The position numbers were made by a program, and so were the translations under genes. The notes beneath the pieces were generated by a model. It saw nothing but the letters and a program-made list of their open reading frames with translations, ran no database searches and was not told the DNA's origin. This document shows positions 8,133-27,396 of a stretch of DNA of 40,000 nt, in pieces. Source of the stretch: Enterobacter sp. TMH.L2 (lineage in GTDB: Bacteria; Pseudomonadota; Gammaproteobacteria; Enterobacterales; Enterobacteriaceae); assembly GCA_050847315.1 (NCBI GenBank), contig CP193791.1; one strand, 5' to 3'. Numbering within the stretch: position 1 is the stretch's first letter; each line of letters starts with the position of its first letter.

Positions 8133-9416
8133 ATGACAGCAGAGATCGCAGTATTCAACAAGACAGCCGTAGCACTTGCCGCAGATTCAGCTGTAACAGT
8201 TTCTGGTGGCGGAAAGCATAAGATCTATAACGGTGCAGAAAAGCTTTTTGCCCTGACAAAGCATCATCCAGTAGGACTTATGGTCTACGGTGCTGGTGAT
8301 TTATGCACAGCACCATGGGAGTTAGTAATCAAAGCTTACCGAAGCCAACTCGGAGCCAAATCCTTTGATAACCTAGAACAATATGCACATGACTTTTTTC
8401 ACTATTTGCAGAACTCGGATGAAATCATAACTGCAGGTATGCGAGATGCTCATCTTTATCATTTTTTAAGCGAAAGTGTCTTTAACTCCCTATTTGATGC
8501 TTTCACAGAAGGGCTCGACAATACTTATTGGCTAGAATTCAATCAAGATAAGCTTTATCAAGACTTTACAGCTTATTGTTTACAATTAAAGAATAAATTA
8601 TCTGAAATTAGCTACTGTGATAACTTTGATGAAACTGATGAAAAAGCTGCTTTAGATTATACAAAACCTTTAGCTAAAAGGATCGTAGGGGAGAAGTTTA
8701 ATGATGTACAATCAACTGACTTACCAGAGAACCTGCTGAAGGTTGTGAGTGAAGTTCTCGCAGCAATGATATGTAAGCAAAGTGATATAGGTTCAATGTC
8801 AGGTATCGTAATTGCTGGATATGGCGAGAAGGACTATTACCCGAAAATTCTCTCATATGAAGTTTTTGGATTTTTTAACCAAAAAATCAGAAAAACTACC
8901 AATAAAGACAAATGTTGCATAAGCCCCGACTGTGGAGTGACCCCCTTTGCTCAGGAGGATGAGGTGGCTGCATTCATGCAAGGAGCAAGTTCTCATCTCA
9001 TTCAAAATCTTCATGGTGAGTATCAGAACTCCATAGTCAACCTGCTCGAGGGTGTTGACAAATTAGTCACAGAAATGGTAGACACTTCTAACATTGAAAA
9101 GGCTAGGGAAGGTATACTCACGATAGTTAGGGGCACTGTTGCGGAATGTAAAGCAAACATAGATAGCTTCGTCCGTGAAAATTACGTCGATAAGGTAGTA
9201 AACATGATTGAGTTTCTGCCGAAACAAGACTTGGCTTATATGGCTGAGTCTCTGGTCAATCTCACTGCCTTCAAACGGAAAGTATCAGATGATACTGAGA
9301 GTGTCGGCGGGCCAATCGATGTCGCAGTGATCTCAAAGGCAGATGGTTTCATTTGGGTAAAACGGAAACATTACTTTAACAAAGATTTAAACCATCATTT
9401 TTTTGAACGGTCATAA
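8133..9416 (+). CDS. Proteasome-beta-like / Ntn-hydrolase-fold protein with large helical insertions (427 aa)
   Basis: N-terminus MTAEIAVFNKTAVALAADSAVTV...GLMVYGAGD: Thr directly after the initiator Met and Asp at mature position 17. Central SGIVIAGYGEKDYYPKILSYEVFG resembles the proteasome IAGyDe..gP.LY.vdp.G segment. C-terminal GGPIDVAVISKADGFIWV. AT-rich and oriented opposite to the surrounding late genes. The CDS is secure; the fold assignment is by eye only. Confidence 0.6.
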   Translation: MTAEIAVFNKTAVALAADSAVTVSGGGKHKIYNGAEKLFALTKHHPVGLMVYGAGDLCTAPWELVIKAYRSQLGAKSFDNLEQYAHDFFHYLQNSDEIITAGMRDAHLYHFLSESVFNSLFDAFTEGLDNTYWLEFNQDKLYQDFTAYCLQLKNKLSEISYCDNFDETDEKAALDYTKPLAKRIVGEKFNDVQSTDLPENLLKVVSEVLAAMICKQSDIGSMSGIVIAGYGEKDYYPKILSYEVFGFFNQKIRKTTNKDKCCISPDCGVTPFAQEDEVAAFMQGASSHLIQNLHGEYQNSIVNLLEGVDKLVTEMVDTSNIEKAREGILTIVRGTVAECKANIDSFVRENYVDKVVNMIEFLPKQDLAYMAESLVNLTAFKRKVSDDTESVGGPIDVAVISKADGFIWVKRKHYFNKDLNHHFFERS

Positions 9417-9623: not shown

Positions 9624-9974
9624 TTAAGAACAAGTTACAACTGCCATTACCCCTTCTAAAAACCCCAAAGCATTTAGCATTTCTTTCCTTATAGTACCAT
9701 CCGAACATTTACGTTTTTTCGCAATAGCCCTTAGAGAGACGCAAAACAAAAAATGGGCAATTATCAGTTCAAAGTACTCTTGGTGGTGTTTTTTTAACCT
9801 AACCACGCAGCTATCAATCATCATTCCTTCATCATCGCTACACATGATCCGGGCTTTTTTTCCATGAGACAGTAACCCCTTAAAACCAGCCGCAATAGGT
9901 TGCCAGTCAACGCCACTATTGTTGGAAGCAGCCCATGCTCCCCACATGTCCAAGGCCTCATACATATCACGCAT
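9624..9974 (-). CDS. Late-gene antiterminator Q-like protein
   Basis: 116 aa, the last gene of the nin-like region before the lysis genes. The C-terminal ...SLRAIAKKRKCSDGTIRKEMLNALGFLEG resembles the HTH-like end of the phage antitermination Q family. Confidence 0.7.
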   Translation of the reverse strand: MRDMYEALDMWGAWAASNNSGVDWQPIAAGFKGLLSHGKKARIMCSDDEGMMIDSCVVRLKKHHQEYFELIIAHFLFCVSLRAIAKKRKCSDGTIRKEMLNALGFLEGVMAVVTCS

Positions 9975-9987
9975 AGTGTTCTCCTAA

Positions 9988-11022
9988 TTAAGCCAGCACA
10001 CCAAGCGCAAAGGCTCGGTCCAAAGTGTTTTTGAGCATGACCAACTGAGAACCGTTCTTACGCTCGAATTCCCTTTGGTCTCGGTGAAGTTCGTCATGGC
10101 ATTTCCGACACAGGGGAATAGCAAAGCTGTCATGCGATTTTGTGCCCATCCCTCCCTGTCCATACCCGATCAGGTGGTGGGGATCATCCGCTGAAGAACC
10201 ACAGCCCTCGCACGGTTGTGATTTAACCCATTTCAGATAGTCAGGTTTTTCCCAACGAATTCGTTTTGGTCGCGAAAAAAACGTTTGAGGTGATTCGGGA
10301 TCTGCCACCAGCGCAACAACGGGCTTTTCTCTGACTTGTTCCTGCTGTTGTTGACTCCGGAAATATGCAGCTCTTTTCACCAGTTCGCTGGTGGCCGGAA
10401 CAGATGGCTCGATTTCACTTTCACGATAAACCGAGAGAATGGGTTCTGGTTTGAAGTTGAGTGCGCGCCGGGCCATTGCCTCTCCTATCGCTTCGGAAAC
10501 ACCCATATAAACGGCCCACCAGCAGAGCTCTGCCAGTGAAAGCTCTCTATCGCTATTGAATCCGAGTTTTGAAAGGACTGTTTCGATTACCCAGGCTTTT
10601 ACATTCTGCAGCGCGATGGCTTCCAGCTGCTCTGTGCTCTGTTCCCGTAATTTGTTATCGCATGACCAGCAAAGGTGCATAGCGCCAGGGCTATGCCGCA
10701 TCATTACCTTTTCTTTATGGTGATAATCCGTGTGTGGCCACTGACAATGAGGGATGCGGCGAAATAGCCAGGACTCGAGCGACGTGATACCGCCGGCAGC
10801 CTGAATGACTCGCTCATCTGCGAAAAACGTATCAAGAGATTTATCTTCGCCTAAGGGCTGCCGCGCATCCGGTATCTTTCCAGAGGGAAGATTTGCCATT
10901 GCTTTTGACGGTATTTCTACAAGGACCCTGCCATACCCAAAAAGCTGCATCAGGTCCCGGCCCGGCTTGAGCAAGACCACACCCAGATTATGTGCAATCT
11001 CTACGGTCAGAATAGCGCGCAT
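9988..11022 (-). CDS. DUF968 (YdfU-like) prophage protein
   Basis: C-terminal CEGCGSSADDPHHLIGYGQGGMGTKSHDSFAIPLCRKCHDELH is the Cys/His-rich signature seen in DUF968 proteins of lambdoid nin regions. Confidence 0.75.
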   Translation of the reverse strand: MRAILTVEIAHNLGVVLLKPGRDLMQLFGYGRVLVEIPSKAMANLPSGKIPDARQPLGEDKSLDTFFADERVIQAAGGITSLESWLFRRIPHCQWPHTDYHHKEKVMMRHSPGAMHLCWSCDNKLREQSTEQLEAIALQNVKAWVIETVLSKLGFNSDRELSLAELCWWAVYMGVSEAIGEAMARRALNFKPEPILSVYRESEIEPSVPATSELVKRAAYFRSQQQQEQVREKPVVALVADPESPQTFFSRPKRIRWEKPDYLKWVKSQPCEGCGSSADDPHHLIGYGQGGMGTKSHDSFAIPLCRKCHDELHRDQREFERKNGSQLVMLKNTLDRAFALGVLA

Positions 11023-11378
11023 GGTTCAGCCTCCCGGATAATGATTTTGCCGGTTGTTCCCCATATTTTTGACACGCGCCCATCCCAGATATGGCTATCC
11101 TCGCCAAATAAGGCATCAAGTAACGCTTTCTCAAGGTTGTCTTTATCGGGCCGTGACTGGTGAGGCTTGCCGTCATACTCCGCCTGTTTTTTTTTGCTCC
11201 AGCTCGGCGGCATTGGAAGAACAAAAATTACGTGATAACCGCACTCAGGCAGCTCAATTCGATTCAGGCGCACCGCATCACAGAACGCCCGATACCGTAA
11301 GACCTCGGGGCGCTTCTTCCACTTATCAGCGCGTGTCATTCGCGGTTTGCCCATAGGGGTTATGCTGTAGGCTTTCAT
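11007..11378 (-). CDS. rusA: Holliday junction resolvase RusA
   Basis: MKAYSITPMGKPRMTRADKW...RPDKDNLEKALLDALFG is the RusA signature. The start at 11378 overlaps the upstream stop (TGATG). Confidence 0.9.
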   Translation of the reverse strand: MKAYSITPMGKPRMTRADKWKKRPEVLRYRAFCDAVRLNRIELPECGYHVIFVLPMPPSWSKKKQAEYDGKPHQSRPDKDNLEKALLDALFGEDSHIWDGRVSKIWGTTGKIIIREAEPCALF

Positions 11379-11581
11379 CACTGCCTCCAGCACGGCTGTT
11401 GGTAGGTGCGGTCGATTCGCGGCGGCGTTTTACCTTCAGGAAGTAGCGCGCTGACAATCCAGTTGGTGTAATCCGGAGCAAGGCTCTTTTCCGTAACGAC
11501 GCCATTGGCCTTATATCGTGTCACCAACTCTTCAGCTTGTTCTGCTGTTAGGTTGTCATGTTGGAACCAGCCCTTTTTCAT
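11378..11581 (-). CDS. Hypothetical nin-region protein (67 aa)
   Basis: ORF tightly coupled to its neighbours by overlaps at both ends. No family recognised. Confidence 0.5.
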   Translation of the reverse strand: MKKGWFQHDNLTAEQAEELVTRYKANGVVTEKSLAPDYTNWIVSALLPEGKTPPRIDRTYQQPCWRQ

Positions 11582-11985
11582 AGCTGCGCTCCGTGAAGTT
11601 CCAGGAACGCGATAGCCCTCTCCCTTGCGCCGGGATAGCCATCAACCATTTCCTGCAGCAACTGCACCGCCAGGATCGGCTCCTTGGAACCGACAATCGA
11701 TATGCCGCGGGAAACGCCTCGGGTGATAGCTATAACGCCTTTGCGCTCGAGGGCTTTGAGATGCTCTGCCGCAGCATTTGGTGAATTTACGCCGAGTAAC
11801 TCAGCAAGCTCCGTTGTTGAAGGCGGATAGCCTTTTTGCTGCAAGAATGAAACCAGAAGGTCGAATACTTCTTGCTGGCGAGGCGTCAGAGAATGGTTTT
11901 TTACCGGACGTGTCAAAGTCCCGGCTGAGCCACTGCGGCTATCGGGTTTGTGTGTTTCAGATTTTTTTGAGGTGTTTTGCGCCAT
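11578..11985 (-). CDS. LexA N-terminal DNA-binding-domain protein lacking the S24 peptidase/cleavage domain (135 aa)
   Basis: [63 protein letters not shown] tracks E. coli LexA residues ~4-70 ([63 protein letters not shown], from memory). There is no AG cleavage site or Ser/Lys domain. GGAGA RBS 6 nt upstream. Confidence 0.8.
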   Translation of the reverse strand: [135 protein letters not shown]

Positions 11986-12024
11986 GGTAGTCTCCGTGGC
12001 GCAGCAGATGTAGGGTGTTCAGGC

Positions 12025-12318
12025 CTACGAGTGAAGTGTATCAAAGCAACTGGTAATCCGGTAGCCCGCTTTCTCAAGCATCTCTGTAAACAGTGTCGGT
12101 GTGCCAATTATCTCTTCTGGTCGCAGGGGAACGAATGACACCTCATCACCACGCCTGTATAAAAGCGCCCTTCCACCATCAGGGAATGAGCCGAATCTTG
12201 CAACCACTGCAAAATCCTCGCAACGAATAAGCGCGTAGCCTGTGTCCGGCAACTCTTCATTAATTTTTATCACTTCGTTCCCCTCTGGCTGCCCCGAACG
12301 ACCTGACCATGGCTTCAT
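12025..12318 (-). CDS. Hypothetical 97-aa protein, first gene downstream of the SOS-box promoter; candidate antirepressor (inference)
   Basis: ORF starting ~90 nt downstream of a canonical LexA box and promoter. No family recognised. Confidence 0.5.
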   Translation of the reverse strand: MKPWSGRSGQPEGNEVIKINEELPDTGYALIRCEDFAVVARFGSFPDGGRALLYRRGDEVSFVPLRPEEIIGTPTLFTEMLEKAGYRITSCFDTLHS

Positions 12319-12408
12319 CCCCCGCCATGCGAGTGGCTATGAAGCACGTCTTTCAGGGTATAACGGAGGATGATTTCTTTGCTCAAAATACCTCCCCACC
12401 TTAAAACA

Positions 12409-12455
12409 CTGTATGAATGTACAGTTATTATTAACCTGTTTATTTTGGATTGCAA
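12409..12455 (-). promoter_or_regulatory. LexA (SOS) box CTGTATGAATGTACAG (12409-12424) with a minus-strand promoter: -35 TTGCAA 12450-12455, -10 TAATAA 12428-12433
   Basis: Perfect CTGT-N8-ACAG with an AT-rich centre; the 20-mer is CACTGTATGAATGTACAGTT. On the minus strand TTGCAA-16 nt-TAATAA lies immediately upstream, so the box covers the predicted start site. Confidence 0.7.
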
Positions 12456-13127
12456 TGAAAAAGGCTCAACAGTACGTTTATGTGGTATTTATCGTTTTTT
12501 CAGTAGGTTAAGTTTTGTTCATGCTATTCAGGCGGTCTGCTGCCCATCAGTATAAAGCTCTGGTAAACTAGCTCTAACCAAAGCTTCGACGAACGGTGGC
12601 GGTGTCGAATTCCAACAGCGCTCATTGGCATACTCAAATCGATGATGAACGGTTACGGGAGCTATATCCAATGCTCACCGCAATACACAATGATGTTGTT
12701 CTTGCTCTTACTATTCGTATCTAGCCCTATCGAGTCAAACACAGATAGATATCGGCCTGCCTTACATAATGCCCACAAGGTTTGCTTTGAGCGAGAACCG
12801 GGCATCGACTTAGCGTGATTGAAGGGAATCTCAAAAGTTTCTGGCATTGTTTACTGGAATACTTACACAGAGTTGCAACTGCCTACATAAAGTGGAAATC
12901 TCCGACTGTATTCGATTCGCCCTGCCAGGGGCATACGCACAAGACGAGATTGTACCGAATTTACAGCTCGGTGATTCAATAAGAAGGTTGAAAGAGACCA
13001 TAGATAAAACATAGAATCAAACTTTAGAGTAGAACTATCCTCATACTTGTTATAGACGACATTAATTACCTGAAGATATAATTAGCATTGAGAATCTAAA
13101 AAAATCATTTCACTTGAGAGAAATACA

Positions 13128-13916
13128 ATGGACGAAAAAATACAGCTCCCCACAGCAGAAGTTTTTTATATGAACCATCCATTATACGAAGAAATATCGT
13201 ACTCAGAAGAAAACGTCGCTGAGCTAGAAAAAATGCTTTTAATTATCCAAATGAACGACGTGCATTGCCCTGATTGTCAAGCCTCCAGCCTTTTCAAAAT
13301 TAATAATAGTTTGTCCAAATCCTTTTACCAAGGATGGCATAAAGAAAACAATAGCTATTGCAAAATGGTTTATAATTGCCTAAGAAATTATGAACACTCA
13401 CTAACTTTCTTTTTCCGAATTGACAACTTTAAAGTCCAAAAAGTTGGTCAATATCCTTCAATGGCTGACCTAAATACATATGATGTAAAAAAATACGCTA
13501 CAGTCTTAGATAAACAACAATATAGTGATTTACGTAAAGCCATAGGATTAGCATCACATGGTATAGGAATTGGCTCATTTGTATATATAAGAAGAATTTT
13601 TGAGGATCTTGTAGAAAGAGCAAGGGTGCATGCTGAAAAGCAAGGAGTAATGAATAATGAAGAATATAAATCTTGTCGGATGGCTGATAAAATAAAAATG
13701 TTAGAGAAATTCCTTCCCCCATTTCTTGTTGAACATCGAAAAATTTACGGAATCCTTAGTAAAGGAGTGCATGAATTGACTGAGGAAGAATGTCTAAAAT
13801 CATTTGATATAGTTAAGGTAGGGATTGAAATAATTCTTGATGAACATCTTGAGGAAAAAGCAAGGAAAGCGAAGATAGATGCTGCATCTAAAGCCATAAA
13901 TAACCTTCAGCATTAG
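13128..13916 (+). CDS. Zn-ribbon plus DUF4145-like (HEPN-related) helical-domain protein (262 aa); candidate exclusion/Abi gene
   Basis: Very AT-rich single gene flanked by long non-coding AT-rich DNA. HCPDC...YCKMVYNC (CxxC...Cx5C), then QYPSMADL and helical ...GIGSFVYIRRIFEDLVE...IYGILSKGVHELTEEE, reminiscent of DUF4145 architecture. The canonical R..N..H motif is not intact. Confidence 0.4.
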   Translation: MDEKIQLPTAEVFYMNHPLYEEISYSEENVAELEKMLLIIQMNDVHCPDCQASSLFKINNSLSKSFYQGWHKENNSYCKMVYNCLRNYEHSLTFFFRIDNFKVQKVGQYPSMADLNTYDVKKYATVLDKQQYSDLRKAIGLASHGIGIGSFVYIRRIFEDLVERARVHAEKQGVMNNEEYKSCRMADKIKMLEKFLPPFLVEHRKIYGILSKGVHELTEEECLKSFDIVKVGIEIILDEHLEEKARKAKIDAASKAINNLQH

Positions 13917-13918
13917 TT

Positions 13919-13952
13919 AAAAGGGCTGTGTAATTACGCAGCCCTTTTATTT
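13919..13952 (+). terminator. Rho-independent terminator of the 262-aa gene
   Basis: AAAAGGGCTG-loop-CAGCCCTTTT followed by ATTT, starting 3 nt after the stop. Confidence 0.8.
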
Positions 13953-14311
13953 AAGGAAAAATGTAAAACAGTGGCCCTGGAGCAATAGTAAACATTAATG
14001 ATTGTGACTTGGGAACATATTCTCAGGATTTCGGCTATCTATAGCATAGATATCCGGAACATTAACAATATAATAAAGATAATGATATACTCACTTGCTC
14101 TCCATAGATTAGCATATATCAAGATCTGATCCTAGCACAGAGCAGACTGTTAGATTAGATTCCGCTCTGAGCCATAACGGCGTCAGTTCAAACCTGAACA
14201 TCAGCCCCGGTTACACTATTCAACAGGAGCTACTGAGTAGTGTTGTTTGTAATGAATGGCAGCAGCTAGGGTGTATTTTGACTGCTGCTCTCAGAGCTTC
14301 GGTGTTATTGC

Positions 14312-16706: not shown

Positions 16707-16931
16707 TCACTCCTCGCTTTGAGTTGATGCTTCAAGAGGGAAAACCGTATCAAGTGTGCAACTTGCTCCAAGGAAGTTGAGCGTATCGACAATTGCTCTA
16801 CATTCGGAGAGACCCGGCTCGCGCAGGTTGGCTTCATAATTTGATAGACGGGAGCGCCCCCAGCCGAGAGCCTCCGCAAGCTGTGTTTGCGATATCCCCA
16901 ACTTTTGGCGTTCCGAAGAAATGTTATTCAC
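16707..16931 (-). CDS. Cro-like XRE-family HTH repressor (74 aa from the GTG at 16931)
   Basis: HTH: RQKLGISQTQLAEALGWGRSRLSNYE. Divergent from the CI-like gene. GGGAGA RBS 6 nt before the GTG at 16931; the track start at 16970 lies inside the operator. Confidence 0.7.
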   Translation of the reverse strand: MNNISSERQKLGISQTQLAEALGWGRSRLSNYEANLREPGLSECRAIVDTLNFLGASCTLDTVFPLEASTQSEE

Positions 16932-16959
16932 AGGTGTTCTCCCTAGTAATTGATAGACC

Positions 16960-17032
16960 AATTTAGACACGAAACGTGTCCATAGTCAACCTCAAAACGT
17001 GATCAACCATATGCCACAAAGCGTGGTAAAAT
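16960..17032. promoter_or_regulatory. Immunity switch: PR (minus; -35 16984-16989, -10 16960-16965), PRM-like -10 TAAAAT (17027-17032) and three operator-like sites
   Basis: Perfect palindrome GACACGAAACGTGTC (16966-16980) in the PR spacer. Weaker copies ACCTCAAAACGTGAT (16989-17003) and GCCACAAAGCGTGGT (17013-17027), spaced 23-24 bp apart. The TAAAAT ends 6 nt before the cI-like ATG with no SD, implying a leaderless mRNA as at lambda PRM. Confidence 0.6.
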
Positions 17033-17038
17033 TTCATT

Positions 17039-17425
17039 ATGAAAACTATGTCCGAAATCATCGGCGAGAGACTCAAGACTCTTCGCGACAGCAAGAACTT
17101 AAGCCAAGCGCAACTTTCCAAGCTGTGCGGGTGGGCTACTGCTTCACGTGTCGGTAATTACGAACTGGGTGTGAGAAACATCGGGGTTGATGACGCGGTT
17201 ATTTTGGCAAGAGTGTTAGATACAACACCAAGCTACATCTTATTTGGCGATGAGGAGAATCGCGGGCAAGAGCTACCTGATAAGCAAAGGAAAATTCTAA
17301 AACTTTTCTCGCAACTGCCTGAGTCAGAACAAGATAAGATGATTGACCTCTTCGAGGTTCGTTTGAAAGAGATTGATGAGTACGTTGAAAAGTATCTAAA
17401 AGGCCGTTTTAAACCGGCTTCCTAA
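17039..17425 (+). CDS. CI-like prophage repressor (XRE HTH) without an S24 autocleavage domain (128 aa)
   Basis: LKTLRDSKNLSQAQLSKLCGWATASRVGNYELG HTH. Divergent from Cro. The short helical C-terminus has no Ala-Gly / Ser-Lys peptidase module. Confidence 0.8.
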   Translation: MKTMSEIIGERLKTLRDSKNLSQAQLSKLCGWATASRVGNYELGVRNIGVDDAVILARVLDTTPSYILFGDEENRGQELPDKQRKILKLFSQLPESEQDKMIDLFEVRLKEIDEYVEKYLKGRFKPAS

Positions 17426-18009: not shown

Positions 18010-18030
18010 ATCGAGTTTTGACCAATGGCC
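18010..18030 (+). repeat. Intergenic repeat copy 3 (21 nt, one internal mismatch)
   Basis: ATCGAGTTTTGACCAATGGCC. Lies 2 nt after the 45-aa ORF stop and 24 nt upstream of the Rrf2 start. Confidence 0.85.
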
Positions 18031-18053
18031 TGCACTGGCCGAGGAATGTGATT

Positions 18054-18398
18054 ATGGAATTTGGCATGAAGCGCGTGATGGCATCCGTTCACGCAATGGC
18101 GGCACTACAGCGCATTTCAAACGGCTCGTTCGTAGCCCTGACCACGCTTAGCAAAGAGGCGAATCTTTCCACTTCTTACCTCGAGCAGATTTTCAATAAG
18201 CTGCGCGTCGGAAAGCTCGTTGTTTCTCAACGAGGCCCAGGCGGCGGTTATGCGCCCCGCGCTGGTGATATTTCAGTTTCAGAAGTCATCCGGGCAGTCA
18301 GCAAGATCCCCAATAACGATACCTTTAAACCCGTTCTGACCGCTCTGGATGGTGTGTTGCTGTCTGAGCTGGCAAAGAGTCAATCAGCAGCCCCATAA
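18054..18398 (+). CDS. Rrf2-family (IscR/NsrR-type) winged-helix regulator without cluster-ligand cysteines (114 aa)
   Basis: LSKEANLSTSYLEQIFNKLRVGKLVVSQRGPGGGYAPRAGDISVSEVIRAV matches the Rrf2 signature (S.SYLEQI..KLR.AGLV.S.RG..GGY.LAR...I...DVI.AV). GAGGAA RBS 7 nt before the ATG at 18054. Confidence 0.8.
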   Translation: MEFGMKRVMASVHAMAALQRISNGSFVALTTLSKEANLSTSYLEQIFNKLRVGKLVVSQRGPGGGYAPRAGDISVSEVIRAVSKIPNNDTFKPVLTALDGVLLSELAKSQSAAP

Positions 18399-18539: not shown

Positions 18540-20570
18540 ATGGAATTCTTTAATTTAATCAAAGCAACTCAAAAATCAGGCAAGCCTGATGCCATCCACT
18601 GGCAGACAGCAAAAACCGAAGCCCGCGCAAATCTGATGCTTGATGTAGCCCTGGAAGATGCCGGTATAGAAACCGGCCGCGGCCACGATTACAACAAGCC
18701 AGTAAGGACTGATTTCCCTGTTTTCGATGATCTTCCGGAGGAAGGCACTGTCGATTTTGAATGGTGTAAACGTTACGAGCTGGCGGAAGACGGCAGAACC
18801 TGGCAGTTGATTCAAACGGCTGCAGTTGACGACGAAGAACCAGAGGAGCTAGGTGACGCCATTGAAAGTTACAAAATGGGTCTCAGCGTCGAACTCGCTC
18901 ATTTCTGGATCGGAGGCATGTTTACAGCAACGCCAGAAGAGCGAGCGGCCGCAATCAAGGCCCAAATGGATATGGACAATAACTATCTCCAGAATGTCAT
19001 TCTGGCGATTAACTCCGTTGAGCCTCTAAAGCAGTGCCACAACCATATACGCCATAGCCTCCTTGAGGCTATCAAGATTATCTGGCCACTGGATGGAAAG
19101 ACTCCTGAGTTGTCTCACGTTCTGGCGTTCTCAAAAGAGTGGATCGACGCTCTGAATGACAATTCAGCCGGCCGCGGTAACCAGAGGGCTGACGTCATTG
19201 AAAAATGGAAGGCAAAGTCTGCGCCACAGCCTGCTGCCGTCCATTCCGTTAAAAGCGAACCGGAGAACATGATCAGGACTGATGCCGGAACCAATGCAGG
19301 TGGACAGATAAAAACTGACCGCAACCCGGATCTGGCTCCTTCCCTGGATGTTCTTGATATTGAAGTCGCAGCGGCCACCCTCCCCATGGATTTTAATATC
19401 TACGAATTTCCGGCTGGCGTTGTTCGCCGGGCGAAGGAAATTATCACCAACAAAGAAGAACCATGGAAAACATGGAGTGCCGTTCTTCGCAAATCGCCAG
19501 GCATTCTGGATTTTTCCCGCGGAGCAATTTTTGTACTTGTCCGTAACGCTCCAACTGAAGTGCTTCATTCCATCCCGGCGCTTACAAGTTATGTGGTCAA
19601 AAATCTGCTTGAGATTAAATTCATGCCGGATGACGGGAACCCAAATAGCGAAGAGCGCTGGAACGCTATTCAGCACTATTTTAAGGCCCCCGCAGCCGTT
19701 GAAGAAAGCGGCGAGAATGTTGATCAGCAGTATGCAGAAAGCAACCAGCCACCAGCCCAACTGGTAAAAGTCGGAGCCGGTGTTTTCGATGCTACAGCTC
19801 TGTTTAATGCCCCTTCTAAGGATACTGCTGCGGAGAATACAAACAATGTGCCGGTGGAAGAAGCTAACAACCATGAAACCAAAGCTGGCACTGAAGTGCT
19901 ACCAGGCGAAGCAGCAATTAACTCAACTGAAAGCCATGCTGTTGTTAATCAGGAGGCAGATACCCTGAATAACGATGCCGGCCACCATAAAGATGAAACT
20001 GAAGAGCAGCTGTTTACTCATCTCATGGTTGACCTGGAGGCATTCGGTTCAACCCCGGACGCTCCAATCGTGTCCATTGGCGCCGTGTTTTTCAATCCTA
20101 AAACCAGCGAGATGGGAAGTGAGTTTTACAAGGTCATCAGCCTGACCTCTTCCATGGGTTCTGGTGGCCTGCCAGACGCAGACACCATTCTATGGTGGAT
20201 GAAACAATCCGCTGAGGCCCGCTCTGCAATTCTGGTTGATGCCATTCCTCTTGATGATGCCCTACTCCAGTTGAACGAGTTTATCTGCGAAAACGCCGCA
20301 AATGGACCTGCCAGCGTTCAGGTATGGGGGAATGGCGCTACATACGACAATGTTTTGCTGCGCAGCTCTTACAAGCGTACCGGCATTCCTGTGCTCTGGG
20401 AGTTTTGGAACGATCGAGACGTGAGAACCATCGTCGAACTGGGCAAAGCCATTGGCATCAATCCTCGCTATGAAATCCCATTCGAAGGGGATCAACATAA
20501 TTCCCTGGCCGATGCGCGCCACCAGGCTAAATACGTTTCAGCCATCTGGCAGAAGCTGGTTAAAGACTGA
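18540..20570 (+). CDS. Large early protein with a C-terminal DEDDh (DnaQ-like) 3'-5' exonuclease domain (676 aa)
   Basis: C-terminal ~190 aa carry HLMVDLEAFG (DxE), VWGNGATYDNVLL (D) and HNSLADARH (H-x4-D). The N-terminal ~480 aa are acidic and of unknown function. Proteins of this kind are often annotated exodeoxyribonuclease VIII-like in prophages. Confidence 0.7.
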   Translation: MEFFNLIKATQKSGKPDAIHWQTAKTEARANLMLDVALEDAGIETGRGHDYNKPVRTDFPVFDDLPEEGTVDFEWCKRYELAEDGRTWQLIQTAAVDDEEPEELGDAIESYKMGLSVELAHFWIGGMFTATPEERAAAIKAQMDMDNNYLQNVILAINSVEPLKQCHNHIRHSLLEAIKIIWPLDGKTPELSHVLAFSKEWIDALNDNSAGRGNQRADVIEKWKAKSAPQPAAVHSVKSEPENMIRTDAGTNAGGQIKTDRNPDLAPSLDVLDIEVAAATLPMDFNIYEFPAGVVRRAKEIITNKEEPWKTWSAVLRKSPGILDFSRGAIFVLVRNAPTEVLHSIPALTSYVVKNLLEIKFMPDDGNPNSEERWNAIQHYFKAPAAVEESGENVDQQYAESNQPPAQLVKVGAGVFDATALFNAPSKDTAAENTNNVPVEEANNHETKAGTEVLPGEAAINSTESHAVVNQEADTLNNDAGHHKDETEEQLFTHLMVDLEAFGSTPDAPIVSIGAVFFNPKTSEMGSEFYKVISLTSSMGSGGLPDADTILWWMKQSAEARSAILVDAIPLDDALLQLNEFICENAANGPASVQVWGNGATYDNVLLRSSYKRTGIPVLWEFWNDRDVRTIVELGKAIGINPRYEIPFEGDQHNSLADARHQAKYVSAIWQKLVKD

Positions 20571-20624: not shown

Positions 20625-20870
20625 ATGCTTCAAATGCTAACTCTCGAAGAATGGGCCGCAGAAAAATATCGGAGCAACCCTCCCGCGATGAATACACTGC
20701 GCCGCTACGCTAAACAAAATATGTTCTCTCCACCAGCGACAAAACAAGGGCGCCTGTGGCGCGTCAGGGAAGATGCAGAGATTGTTGGAGAATTGGCAAA
20801 ACCCGTAATTAGAAAGACGGACTCGCCCTTACTACAAAGGATTTTATCGGATGGCTGCCAGACCGCGTAA
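20625..20870 (+). CDS. xis: Excisionase, lambda Xis family
   Basis: MLTLEEWAAEKYRSNPPAMNTLRRYAKQNMFSPPATKQGRLWRVRED parallels lambda Xis MYLTLQEWNARQRRPRSLETVRRWVRECRIFPPPVKDGREYLFHE (from memory). Overlaps the int start by 20 nt. Confidence 0.85.
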   Translation: MLQMLTLEEWAAEKYRSNPPAMNTLRRYAKQNMFSPPATKQGRLWRVREDAEIVGELAKPVIRKTDSPLLQRILSDGCQTA

Positions 20871-21981
20871 AAATCAGGTAAAAGTGCCGAATCTTTATCC
20901 TCTCTACAGCCGTAAAGTGAATAAAGTCTACTGGCGGTATAAGCACCCTGTAACGGGTAAATTCCATGCGCTGGGCGATAACGAACAAGAGGCAATCGCA
21001 ATTGCCACCGAGGCAAACGCAAGAATTGCAGAACAAAGAACGCGGCAAATACTGGCGGTGAGTGACAGAATCGCCACCAGCAAAGGTAAAGCAATCACCG
21101 CCAATACCTGGCTCGATCGTTACTGTAGCATTCAGGATGAAAGGCTTAAGAGTGGAGATATAAGGCCGAATACCCATAAGCAAAAAGCCAAACCTATCGC
21201 GTTGCTTAGGGCACGTGTGGGTATGAAAACTATCTCAATGGTAGACGTAAGAGACATAGCTCAAATACTCGACGAGTATATTGCTGATGGCCAGGCACGT
21301 ATGGCTCAGGTCATACGCTCTGTTCTAATCGATGTATTCAAAGAAGCTCAGCACGCTGGGGAGGTTCCGCCAGGCTACAACCCCGCTCTCGCCACAAAGC
21401 AGCCGCGCCGGAGAATTACTCGTCAGCGATTAAACCTTGAAGAGTGGAAGAATATATTTGCAATCGCAGATGCAAATCACCGTTATTTGGGTAATGCAAT
21501 GTTATTGGCCATCGTCACTGGCCAGCGCCTTGGCGATATTTCCAAAATGAAATTTAGCGATATCTGGGATGATCACCTTCATGTGATCCAGGAAAAAACA
21601 GGCAGCAAGATTGCTATTCCTTTGTCTCTTCGATGTAACGCCATTGATTGGTGTCTGCGCGATGTGGTGGCCCGCTGCCGCGATTATGCGGTGAGCCCGT
21701 ACATGGTTCATTTTTTCCGGGCAACGTCCCAAGCTGAACGAGGTGCCCAGGTGAAATCCAATACGATCACAATGAACTTCAGCAAGGCTCGTGATAAAGC
21801 AGGAATAAATTGGGGAGATGGGACGCCAGCAACTTTTCATGAACAACGTTCTTTAGCAGAGCGTCTGTATGTAGCACAAGGGATCGACACTCAGAAACTA
21901 CTGGGACATAAGTCACCTAATCAGACAGCCCGATATCATGATGACCGTGGTAAGGAATGGAGTGTGATAAATAACGTATAA
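20851..21981 (+). CDS. int: Tyrosine integrase, lambda Int family
   Basis: 376 aa. N-terminal arm-binding-type region (PNLYPLYSRKVNKVYWRYKHPVTGKFHALG, compare lambda PPNLYIRNNGYYCYRDPRTGKEFGLG). C-terminal R...HxxR...Y context (TFHEQRSLAERLY...LLGHKSPNQTARYHDD). Confidence 0.92.
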   Translation: MAARPRKNQVKVPNLYPLYSRKVNKVYWRYKHPVTGKFHALGDNEQEAIAIATEANARIAEQRTRQILAVSDRIATSKGKAITANTWLDRYCSIQDERLKSGDIRPNTHKQKAKPIALLRARVGMKTISMVDVRDIAQILDEYIADGQARMAQVIRSVLIDVFKEAQHAGEVPPGYNPALATKQPRRRITRQRLNLEEWKNIFAIADANHRYLGNAMLLAIVTGQRLGDISKMKFSDIWDDHLHVIQEKTGSKIAIPLSLRCNAIDWCLRDVVARCRDYAVSPYMVHFFRATSQAERGAQVKSNTITMNFSKARDKAGINWGDGTPATFHEQRSLAERLYVAQGIDTQKLLGHKSPNQTARYHDDRGKEWSVINNV

Positions 21982-21983
21982 AA

Positions 21984-22412
21984 CTATCTTTTCAGTGATA
22001 ATAATATCACCTGAAGTACAACTGTCATGACCTGGAGAAACGTTGCTACACTGAAAGTCAATGCTAGTGAAGCTATGAAATAGGTTTTAATGTTGGAGAG
22101 GCATAGGATAGCAAGAAACAACGTTATGCCTAATTCTATAAAGCAGCAGAAATAAAAGAAATATGTTGACTTAAGATACCCAAACGCCTTGAATCTTCTG
22201 ATGTTTTCATTATCAAGTGATGTGAGTATCACGATTAGAGCAAATACTAAAGCCATCATAGCTGTTGCATATGATGCCAATGCAGAACCCAGACCATCTA
22301 AGTGGTCTACAAAATTCACTTGCGGAAATATTTTATACCGGAAAATGTACAAAGCAATCCCTATCCCGTTAGTGATAGATAGTAAAACAAGCACTGGGAT
22401 TGCTTTTTTCAT
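21984..22412 (-). CDS. rexB: RexB-like four-TM membrane protein (142 aa)
   Basis: Four hydrophobic helices. VDHLDGLGSALASYATAMMALVFALIVILTS...FGYLKSTYFFYFCCFIELGITLF aligns by eye with lambda RexB SAHRDGLGATLSSYAGTMIAILIAALTFLIGS...YGYMTSVVIVYALSFVELGALFF (from memory). Lambda RexB is 144 aa. AT-rich. Confidence 0.7.
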   Translation of the reverse strand: MKKAIPVLVLLSITNGIGIALYIFRYKIFPQVNFVDHLDGLGSALASYATAMMALVFALIVILTSLDNENIRRFKAFGYLKSTYFFYFCCFIELGITLFLAILCLSNIKTYFIASLALTFSVATFLQVMTVVLQVILLSLKR

Positions 22413-22413
22413 A

Positions 22414-23229
22414 TTAATATCCAGCAGCTCTTAAATCTGCATTTTGGTTAAAGTTAGTATCCATTTGAAGGTGCAATGGAATATTTGATTTTGTATTTAC
22501 GGTATCATACACGCATCCAGAAGCAGCAATGTGTAATTCCTCTGCTTGAGAGCCAATTGCATGTTTAGCCGCAATGGTCATATCAATAATACCTTGCGGC
22601 ATGTTAGCCAGTGTGGGGACAATGGTGTCTCTAATGTTTTTCGCACGTTTCGGCTTGATTATTATTTCAAAACTATCAACATCATCAAATGCTAATGCAG
22701 TCACTCCAAGAAAATTTGTCATTTCCCTGATTGCGAAAGGAGAATTTTTCTCTAACCGAACATTAATTTTCCCCATATGAGCGAAAGCCAATGCCTGAGC
22801 TGGTGTGATTGTTTTTGAAATAGGTTCAAAGCGGAGATTGTTACCACCATTAGCATTGAAAAAATAATGATCGTAATAAGTCGCAAATGCACCAATTTTA
22901 GGTCCAAAAATAGTACTACTGAAGCCAATACATGTAGGCTTAATTATGAAGTAAGATGCAAAAGCAACTTCCTCATTCGCTTGTAATAAAGCCGAGATAT
23001 CTTGATAGCTATTATTTACACGATCGATTGTTTTTATGATGTCTGTATTATTTGTTTTGAGAAACATAAAAACATCATTTGAAATATGATGGACTGAATA
23101 ATAAGTACCATTGAGGCTGGCAGTTTGATTGTTCTGCCCAATTAGTTGCATTAGAGATGCTTTCATAGTGGCGTGCAAAGCTTGGCCATTCCGGGGGTAT
23201 AGGTCAAATTTTAAGTAATTTGTTTTCAT
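22414..23229 (-). CDS. rexA: RexA-like protein (271 aa from the ATG at 23229)
   Basis: FMFLKTNNTDIIKTIDRVNNSYQDI...AFASYFIIKPTCIGFSSTIFGP...LRFEPI...FEIIIKPKRAKNIRD aligns by eye with lambda RexA FLFTKTNDKSLVQKINRSKASVEDI...GFPSFLFVEGDTIGFARTVFGP...VQIEPL...LDIVIKPKFKRDIKK (from memory). Abuts the rexB-like start (TAATATG). Confidence 0.7.
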   Translation of the reverse strand: MKTNYLKFDLYPRNGQALHATMKASLMQLIGQNNQTASLNGTYYSVHHISNDVFMFLKTNNTDIIKTIDRVNNSYQDISALLQANEEVAFASYFIIKPTCIGFSSTIFGPKIGAFATYYDHYFFNANGGNNLRFEPISKTITPAQALAFAHMGKINVRLEKNSPFAIREMTNFLGVTALAFDDVDSFEIIIKPKRAKNIRDTIVPTLANMPQGIIDMTIAAKHAIGSQAEELHIAASGCVYDTVNTKSNIPLHLQMDTNFNQNADLRAAGY

Positions 23230-23306
23230 TCCATGCCAACTTTTAAAATGCTGTGTTAGCAGAAATTGTCGCACTCGGGGGAAAAAAAGCAACACACAAT
23301 GTGATG

Positions 23307-23408: not shown

Positions 23409-24659
23409 TTACATGTGATTAATGATAGCGTCGCCAAACTCTGAACATTTCAGCAGCTTAGCGCCATCCATCAGACGCTCAAAGTCATAAGTTACGGTCT
23501 TAGCTTCGATAGCGCCTTCCATACCTTTAACGATCAGGTCTGCCGCTTCGAACCATTCCATATGACGCAGCATCATTTCTGCGGACAGGATGATGGAGCC
23601 CGGGTTCACTTTGTCCTGGCCTGCGTACTTAGGCGCAGTACCGTGGGTCGCTTCGAACAGCGCGCAGTCGTCACCGATGTTTGCGCCCGGGGCGATACCG
23701 ATGCCGCCAACCTGTGCCGCCAGGGCATCAGAAATGTAGTCCCCGTTCAGGTTCATACAGGCGATCACGTCGTATTCTGCAGGACGCAGCAGGATCTGCT
23801 GCAGGAACGCATCGGCGATCACGTCTTTTACAACGATCTCTTTGCCGGTGTTCGGGTTCTTGATTTTCACCCACGGGCCGCCGTCGATCAGCTCGCCGCC
23901 GAACTCTTCGCGAGCCAGCTGGTAGCCCCAGTCTTTGAACGCGCCTTCGGTGAACTTCATGATGTTGCCTTTGTGCACCAGGGTCACGGAATCACGGTCG
24001 TTGGTGATCGCGTATTCGATGGCCGCACGTACCAGGCGTTTGGTGCCTTCTTCGGAGCAAGGCTTGATGCCGATCCCGCAGTGCTCAGGGAAGCGAATTT
24101 TCTTCACGCCCATTTCGTCACGCAGGAACTTGATAACTTTGTCCGCTTCAGCGCTGTCCGCTTTCCACTCGATACCCGCATAGATATCTTCGGAGTTCTC
24201 ACGGAAGATAACCATGTCGGTCAGCTCAGGCTGTTTAACCGGGCTTGGGGTACCCTGGTAGTAACGTACCGGGCGCAGGCAAACGTACAGGTCCAGCTGC
24301 TGACGCAGGGCAACGTTCAGGGAGCGAATACCGCCGCCCACTGGGGTAGTCAGTGGGCCTTTGATGGCCACGCGGTAGTCACGAATCAGGTCCAGAGTTT
24401 CTTCTGGCAGCCAGACGTCCTGGCCATAAACTTGGGTAGATTTTTCGCCGGTGTAGATTTCCATCCAGGAAATTTTCCGCTCGCCGTTGTAGGCTTTTGC
24501 CACGGCAGCATCCACCACTTTAATCATGGCAGGAGTTACGTCCACACCAATACCGTCCCCTTCAATGAACGGGATCACTGGGTTGTTAGGAACGTTGATT
24601 TTGCCATTTTGCAGGGTGATCTTTTTACCTTCCGCCGGAACGACTACTTTGCTTTCCAT
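23409..24659 (-). CDS. icd: Isocitrate dehydrogenase (NADP)
   Basis: The 416-aa product is near-identical to E. coli Icd throughout ([24 protein letters not shown]...). The C-terminus ends ...GDAIINHM versus E. coli ...GDAIIENM. Confidence 0.97.

Positions 24660-25771: not shown

Positions 25772-27396
<1,625 letters not shown>

Follow-up and report, generated by a model that had tools for sequence, protein, structure and literature searches.

The Gifsy prophages of Salmonella are induced via small antirepressors made from a LexA-controlled operon, dinI-antirepressor-irsA, which lies downstream of the replication genes (Lemire, Figueroa-Bossi and Bossi 2011, PMC3121763). The short repressors to which they bind do not undergo cleavage, as shown for the GfoA/GfoR and GftA/GftR pairs; the antirepressor activity of GfoA was demonstrated both genetically and biochemically, and dinI was found to be dispensable for Gifsy induction (PMC3121763). 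GfoA-seeded searches led to Rem of the Escherichia coli Qin prophage, which derepresses the short repressor DicA (Ragunathan and Vanderpool, PMC10448788). Here we analyze a 40,000-nucleotide stretch of DNA from Enterobacter sp. TMH.L2 (contig CP193791.1), called the window throughout, which contains a lambdoid prophage inserted beside icd of the host. We think it likely that this prophage has a Gifsy-type SOS induction module in which LexA controls an antirepressor that acts on a non-cleavable repressor. A circuit of this kind had been proposed in the sequence-only reading of the window, and four lines of comparison support it at the sequence level: a GfoA homologue, a repressor of the GfoR/GtgR/DicA class, a LexA box found in 85/85 loci and a position in the nin region. 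The parts of the module are as follows.

12450-12455, minus strand: -35 hexamer TTGCAA of the putative LexA-controlled promoter
12427-12433, minus strand: -10 region TAATAAT of the same promoter
12407-12426, no strand assigned: LexA (SOS) box, which reads AACTGTACATTCATACAGTG in the direction of transcription and abuts the -10 region
12274-12406, minus strand: 5' leader of about 130-145 nucleotides, in the place of dinI, common to the closest relatives
12025-12273, minus strand: predicted antirepressor gene of the GfoA family, 82 residues, GTG start with a GAGGGG Shine-Dalgarno sequence
17039-17425, plus strand: prophage repressor of the GfoR/GtgR/DicA class, 128 residues, predicted target of the antirepressor
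16707-16970, minus strand: Cro-like helix-turn-helix (HTH) protein, divergent from the repressor gene; relative L066 has a 74-residue call there
16966-16980, no strand assigned: palindrome GACACGAAACGTGTC between the cI and cro genes, read by eye, candidate operator

The small gene was listed by the open reading frame program as 12025-12318, a 97-residue frame with an ATG start, and the sequence-only reading had described its product as a 97-residue protein that could not be annotated. Both descriptions had to be revised. The start is most likely the in-frame GTG at 12273, which has GAGGGG-N6 ahead of it, and the product would then be 82 rather than 97 residues long, since four of the five distinct close relatives have a broken ATG extension and homologues are mostly 78-86 residues in length. 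A stop codon closes the upstream ATG frame in L066 and L072 (near-identical copies), a frameshift disrupts it in L073, the ATG is replaced by CTG in L074, and L071 has no ATG and then a stop. The extension thus appears to be an unconserved 5' addition. Pfam and NCBIfam have no family for the 82-residue protein. In PHROGs it belongs to phrog_1813 (2e-34) with phrog_340 as second match (9e-10). Both families are labelled 'unknown function', and phrog_340, the sister of phrog_1813, is the family of GfoA.

To have authentic references for comparison, the GfoA and GfoR sequences were fixed by the published cloning primers (PMC3121763), pp866/pp867 for gfoA and le144/le145 for gfoR. The gfoA forward primer has an exact match in 59 IMG/VR contigs. 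One of these relatives, L012, contains 20/22 template bases of the gfoA reverse primer together with both gfoR primers, which bracket a 131-residue open reading frame. Its genes run in the order dinI, an 82-residue gene with a UUG start, a 200-residue NinB-like gene, a 69-residue gene and NinG, with gfoR about 4.4 kb away. The window protein and the GfoA of L012 share 38% identity over 73 residues in BLASTP (E 1e-14), and GfoA gives the mirror image of the window protein's PHROGs matches (phrog_340 at 8e-21, phrog_1813 at 4e-11). Alignment by hhalign of the profiles of the two subfamilies gave 99.8% probability and an E value of 9e-30 over 79 columns. On these alignments the 82-residue protein is a full-length GfoA homologue. 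A tblastn search with the window protein showed the same relationship in a database-level match to phage SEN34 (E 2e-6), and an exhaustive profile search recovered 43 cluster representatives only, nearly all of them small proteins and with GfoA-like ones among them.

The genomic slot of the gene leads to the same place. Salmonella phage SPN3UB has a 76%-identical homologue exactly between dinI and a gene of the NinB/irsA type, which is the slot of gftA in Gifsy-1 of strain LT2. The three antirepressor genes are also alike in having non-AUG starts: GTG in the window, GUG in gftA and UUG in gfoA. GftA itself, the LT2 Gifsy antirepressor, was considered as a relative and rejected. It gave no BLASTP match to the window protein and an hhalign probability of 1%, and it belongs to phrog_4847. 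As GftA is not detectably similar, we claim membership for the GfoA branch only. The gene lies about 4.8 kb from the repressor gene, past the replication genes and before RusA and Q, and is therefore outside the immunity region. Taken together, the window contains homologous parts in a homologous arrangement.

Positions 12407-12426 read CACTGTATGAATGTACAGTT, a CTGT-N8-ACAG palindrome, exactly the perfect LexA box that had been claimed there. The claimed minus-strand promoter directly upstream of it, TTGCAA-16 nucleotides-TAATAA, was also borne out on reading the sequence. TAATAA occupies 12433-12428 and is followed by one T and then the box, so that the box begins one base past the -10 hexamer; the -10 region can be read either as TAATAA with a 16-nucleotide spacer or as AATAAT with a 17-nucleotide spacer. 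The -10 region GTTAATAAT is kept in the relatives, and the -35 hexamer is TTGCAA or TTGCAT in L003, L004, L066 and L067. The box is expected from this layout to cover the +1 position of the minus-strand promoter.

Given the simplicity of the motif, the box might be a chance palindrome and the promoter free of SOS regulation. The loose form CTGT-N8-ACAG is found twice in the window against 0.42 expected, and 7/100 shuffled sequences reach two matches, so the bare motif alone is not rare enough to convince. More stringent measures single out this copy. The extended palindrome ACTGTA-N6-TACAGT is found once in the window and in 0/100 shuffles. A heterology-type score was built on a set of 20 LexA operators of E. 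coli, whose own scores range from 0.27 to 9.6. The box scores 4.63, inside that range, and is the only 20-mer below 13 on either strand of the 40-kb window; the second CTGT-N8-ACAG copy, at 25925, has a GC-rich spacer, scores 13.6-17.8 and is a non-site. By this score the box is the sole site of LexA-operator quality in the window.

The relatives also argue against a fortuitous box. We scored 80 viral contigs that encode relatives, together with other loci, for a box within 900 nucleotides upstream, dinI, the next gene, repressor type and S24 domains. The set spans phages of Buttiauxella, Dryocola, Salmonella, Citrobacter, Klebsiella and Aeromonas. A CTGT-N8-ACAG box lies upstream of the homologue in 85/85 loci that have enough upstream DNA, mostly with dinI in between, and the two loci without a box have just 153 and 319 nucleotides of upstream DNA. 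The distance from box to homologue is about 300-330 nucleotides when dinI is present, about 150 nucleotides without dinI (the window, L066 and L070-L074) and 36 nucleotides in L125. The spacer sequence within the box varies among loci, whereas the CTGT and ACAG arms are kept, and in all scorable relatives the box is at the same place. With the box constant in this way, a chance palindrome seems to us extremely improbable, and we proceed with the LexA-controlled promoter.

The sequence-only reading had also noted that the CI-like repressor is only 128 residues long and has no S24 autocleavage module, and this point stood up to wider searches. Pfam finds only an HTH domain (HTH_3/HTH_31), which does not place the protein in the lambda CI/LexA type, and tblastn with the C-terminal catalytic domains of LexA, lambda CI and UmuD detected no S24 module anywhere in the window. 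The protein is thus predicted from its sequence to be of the short, non-cleavable type. It is 33% identical to GfoR (E 3e-17) in an alignment that reaches the C-terminus, where LPESEQ...LKEIDEYVEKYLKGR of the window repressor aligns with LPDDEE...LKELDAMYEKYMKGR of GfoR. Identity to GtgR is 27% (E 2e-8). The best NCBIfam model is DicA, matched over its full length at 5e-16, a score under the model's trusted cutoff. The palindrome GACACGAAACGTGTC at 16966-16980 could be the operator of this repressor; the repeat finder, at the settings used, did not report it.

The short repressor type extends to the relatives. No S24 match was found within 7 kb in any scored locus. Every repressor detected with short-repressor queries was of the short type, and in many loci none was detected. 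The repressors found are like that of the window (CI128-like), like GfoR, or like a 142-residue relative (R142) with the same C-terminal motif.

Put together on the model of the Gifsy and Qin experiments, from which we infer LexA binding, SOS dependence, antirepressor-repressor contact and prophage induction, the circuit would work as follows. In the lysogen, host LexA bound at 12407-12426 would block the TTGCAA-N16-TAATAA promoter. Upon DNA damage, RecA-stimulated self-cleavage of LexA would allow the promoter to fire, and the first translated product would be the 82-residue GfoA-family antirepressor (12273-12025). As it accumulates, the antirepressor would bind the dimer of the 128-residue repressor and strip it off its operators, the early operons would open and the prophage would be induced. 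The same transcript would encode a 135-residue protein that has only the DNA-binding domain (DBD) of LexA, and would probably continue through the nin genes to Q.

Several observations weigh against this reading. The usual first gene of the operon, dinI, is absent from the window. A terminator hairpin that stands ahead of the promoter in relatives is half lost, with its upstream arm gone and the flanking DNA replaced. The identity of 38% to GfoA is too low for partner specificity to be read off the sequence. The same antirepressor subfamily is found beside three short-repressor types (CI128-like, GfoR-like and R142-like), and therefore antirepressors and repressors are only loosely paired, and co-residence is the ground on which the cognate target is assumed. 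Many of the scored loci are near-identical Salmonella prophages, and 85/85 overstates the number of independent observations. Lastly, an AlphaFold2 model of the 82-residue protein (predicted local distance difference test 84) matched no solved structure, so that no binding mode gains structural support from it; searching the sequences in the PDB with the protein likewise gave no match.

The loose pairing bears on the main competing explanation, which differs from ours in emphasis rather than in kind: the module would be real, but the antirepressor would act mainly in trans on the repressors of co-resident prophages, or the prophage would be defective, and the circuit would not control the induction of its own element. 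Cross-action between heteroimmune phages is indeed known for Gifsy antirepressors, and FsoA has no role in the phage that encodes it (PMC3121763). Antirepressor homologues beside three different repressor types fit such cross-talk, and the decay of the flank upstream of the promoter, seen in a methylase remnant at 12528-12671 and the lost half of the terminator, would fit a defective element. Against this, the window repressor has the conserved C-terminal region of GfoR, and the module is retained in a relative whose repressor is 100% identical. Moreover, the integrase, replication, Q, lysis and head genes are all retained on the expected strands. We consider it unlikely that the circuit has no part in induction of its own prophage, and keep to the Gifsy-type module as the preferred reading.

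The genes that follow the antirepressor gene on the minus strand, in the rightward unit, are given next.

11578-11985, minus strand: 135-residue LexA-DBD-only protein, 39 nucleotides downstream of the antirepressor gene, in place of the Gifsy NinB/irsA gene
11378-11581, minus strand: 67-residue conserved nin-region protein (phrog_1212); its start overlaps the LexA-DBD stop
11007-11393, minus strand: RusA Holliday-junction resolvase, next in the unit
9988-11022, minus strand: DUF968/HNH gene, after RusA
9624-9974, minus strand: antiterminator Q, after the DUF968/HNH gene

No convincing minus-strand terminator was found between the LexA promoter and Q, and the SOS-driven transcript may therefore reach Q. 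This continuity invites another explanation, namely that the promoter serves mainly the LexA-DBD-only protein and the nin and Q genes under SOS, and that the 82-residue protein does something else, for instance modulate RecA or cell division. No terminator was detected where the operon passes on into the LexA-DBD gene, RusA, DUF968 and Q, and relatives carry other SOS-controlled prophage cargo, such as dinI, at this position. What makes the explanation quite improbable in our view is that the 82-residue protein is homologous over its full length to a proven antirepressor (PMC3121763) and that the small gene is the constant occupant of the slot, whereas the LexA-DBD gene is optional there, other loci carrying NinB or no gene. 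An antirepressor role for the small protein is accordingly the one we retain. Homologues of the 67-residue protein also follow the antirepressor module in the Gifsy-1-type L012 and other relatives.

The gene 'beyond' the small open reading frame in the sequence-only reading is that of the LexA-DBD-only protein. It matches PF01726 at 2e-24 and the LexA N-terminal domain in the PDB at E 1e-20, and is thereby assigned a LexA DNA-binding domain. Of the five DNA-contact residues listed for E. coli LexA in PMC3091678, four are kept (Ser39, Asn41, Ala42 and Glu45) and Glu44 is changed to Ala. Aligned with E. coli LexA, the protein has no Ala84-Gly85 cleavage site and no S24 domain with Ser119/Lys156; in their place it has a conserved 35-residue tail unrelated to LexA, and its score with the TIGR00498 model is 76.7, below the cutoff of 110.95. 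Proteins of this LexA-DBD-only family are common in Klebsiella, Raoultella, Enterobacter, Salmonella and Buttiauxella. They are about 100-200 residues long, and PF01726 is always the sole LexA-related domain. The 135-residue protein itself is 100% identical to one recorded for Enterobacter sp. TMH.L2.

A literature search on LexA-DBD paralogues of enterobacterial phages turned up only gp6 of the Bacillus phage GIL01, a truncated homologue of LexA (PMC6182141). Like the 135-residue protein, gp6 is a phage-encoded LexA DNA-binding domain without an autocleavage domain; it differs in coming from a Bacillus tectivirus and in being an activator of a late promoter. Since most of the LexA recognition helix is kept and no cleavage is possible, the 135-residue protein could re-repress LexA boxes during SOS. 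We put forward only tentatively, as a doubtful notion, that this protein, presumably co-transcribed with the antirepressor, may be a LexA mimic that resists cleavage and binds CTGT-N8-ACAG boxes again once host LexA has been destroyed. If it did, its own operon could be shut off again and the antirepressor pulse could become self-limiting. The silencing could also reach host SOS genes and, where rival Gifsy-type prophages share the cell, the LexA-controlled promoters of their antirepressors. By analogy with GIL01 gp6, it could instead be the activator of a phage promoter.

The short junction between the antirepressor and LexA-DBD genes (11986-12024) has the pattern GGCCTGAACA.C...CTGCGCCACGGAGA.TACCATGGCGCA, which is kept after the antirepressor gene in the window, L001, L003, L004 and L011. 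It is kept whether NinB, the LexA-DBD gene or nothing follows, and L003 and L004 retain only a ATGGCGCAA stub. The junction looks like a mosaic recombination boundary.

On the other side of the antirepressor gene, the leader occupies the place of dinI, and a search of the whole window detected no homologue of dinI, the typical first gene of a Gifsy-type module. Nor is dinI present in the close relatives L066 and L070-L074; more distant relatives carry it. The leader was considered as an internally deleted dinI remnant, but global alignment with the dinI of L067 was scattered and unconvincing, and we state only that dinI is absent. It contains a short open reading frame (12315-12386, minus strand) of 23 codons with a TTG start. 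As a conserved leader peptide this was rejected, since among relatives the frame has 13, 23 or about 26 codons and in L071 it is frameshifted. Nor does the leader resemble a structured RNA: its fold z-score is -1.29 (not significant) and it matches no Rfam family.

The terminator mentioned above is seen in L066 as the hairpin AAGGCTC-N4-GAGCCTTTTT ahead of the -35 hexamer, and is also found in other relatives. In the window, at 12528-12671 (minus strand), is a C-terminal remnant of a DNA methyltransferase (...PPPFVEALVRASLPEL...) whose gene is intact in L067 and L068. The remnant marks a replacement event in which the terminator lost its upstream arm as well. A 262-residue gene (13128-13916, plus strand) immediately upstream of the LexA promoter runs against the early operon. 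It matches nothing but phrog_25239 (unknown function), Pfam and PADLOC giving no match, and its position is held by a 404-residue gene in L066 and by a DNA methylase in L067/L068. Its 3' end (13891-13956, plus strand) gave a weak Rfam match to the Salmonella small RNA STnc390 (27.9 bits against a gathering score of 50, E 0.0035), probably a terminator-like chance match.

Two genes of the wider context are listed next.

23409-24659, minus strand: icd, the host gene that the prophage adjoins
20851-21981, plus strand: integrase, separated from icd by a RexA/RexB pair

The minus-strand rightward early unit begins with cro, a YdaT-like gene, DUF1376, a lambda-P-like gene and a Ren-like gene, followed by an opposite-strand moron. 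After the moron come the LexA promoter, the antirepressor, LexA-DBD and 67-residue genes, RusA, DUF968/HNH and Q. Between Q and the lysis genes a 427-residue gene (8133-9416, plus strand) is on the opposite strand. Neither Pfam nor PADLOC gives a match for it, the N-terminus MTAEIAVFNKTAVALAADSAVT... of its product recalls N-terminal-nucleophile hydrolases, and it may be a moron or defence gene. In the leftward early operon a 126-residue regulator of the Rrf2 family (18018-18398, plus strand), kept in L066 and L067, stands between the repressor and a fusion of Exo VIII with an Rv2179c-like exonuclease (18540-20570). The abortive-infection genes for RexB (142 residues) and RexA (293 residues) lie at 21984-23295 (minus strand) between the integrase and icd, at the end of the prophage; in lambda they are beside the repressor. 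Megablast of 11300-12800 against phage and E. coli collections gave no match, and therefore no deposited phage or prophage of E. coli is close to the element at the DNA level.

The nearest described counterparts are GfoA/GfhA and GfoR/GfhR of Gifsy-1/Gifsy-3 in Salmonella Typhimurium ATCC 14028 (PMC3121763). The antirepressors are homologous at the identity given above, with 82 residues and a non-AUG start in both, as are the short repressors without a cleavage domain (33% identity). In both cases the LexA box abuts the -10 region in the nin region, outside the immunity region, with the 67-residue gene and Q downstream. The window differs in having no dinI between promoter and antirepressor gene, in a third gene that is LexA-DBD-only rather than NinB/irsA, in RusA and DUF968 in place of NinG, and in its Enterobacter host and integration next to icd. 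GftA-GtgR (GftR) of Gifsy-2 and LT2 Gifsy-1 has the same operon slot and logic and a repressor related to that of the window (27%, E 2e-8), whereas GftA is of another PHROG family (phrog_4847), without significant similarity to the window protein. Rem-DicA is alike in pairing an antirepressor with a short repressor, and DicA is the best NCBIfam model for the window repressor; Rem itself is likened from the literature alone, and its inducing signal is not LexA (PMC10448788). Tum of coliphage 186 and AntC of N15, cited in PMC3121763, follow the same logic of a LexA-repressed antirepressor against a non-cleavable repressor. They are likened by logic alone, being other, larger proteins (Tum has 146 residues with a DinI-like half).

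The circuit design is already known, and its wide occurrence was predicted in the discussion of PMC3121763; the window provides a further example of it. The present comparison would extend the Gifsy/Rem-type circuit to prophages of Enterobacter, Buttiauxella, Dryocola, Klebsiella and Citrobacter. It would also give phrog_1813, annotated as of 'unknown function', a functional label, and it documents a variant of the module without dinI. The module predicts that SOS-inducing antibiotics would trigger this prophage despite its non-cleavable repressor.

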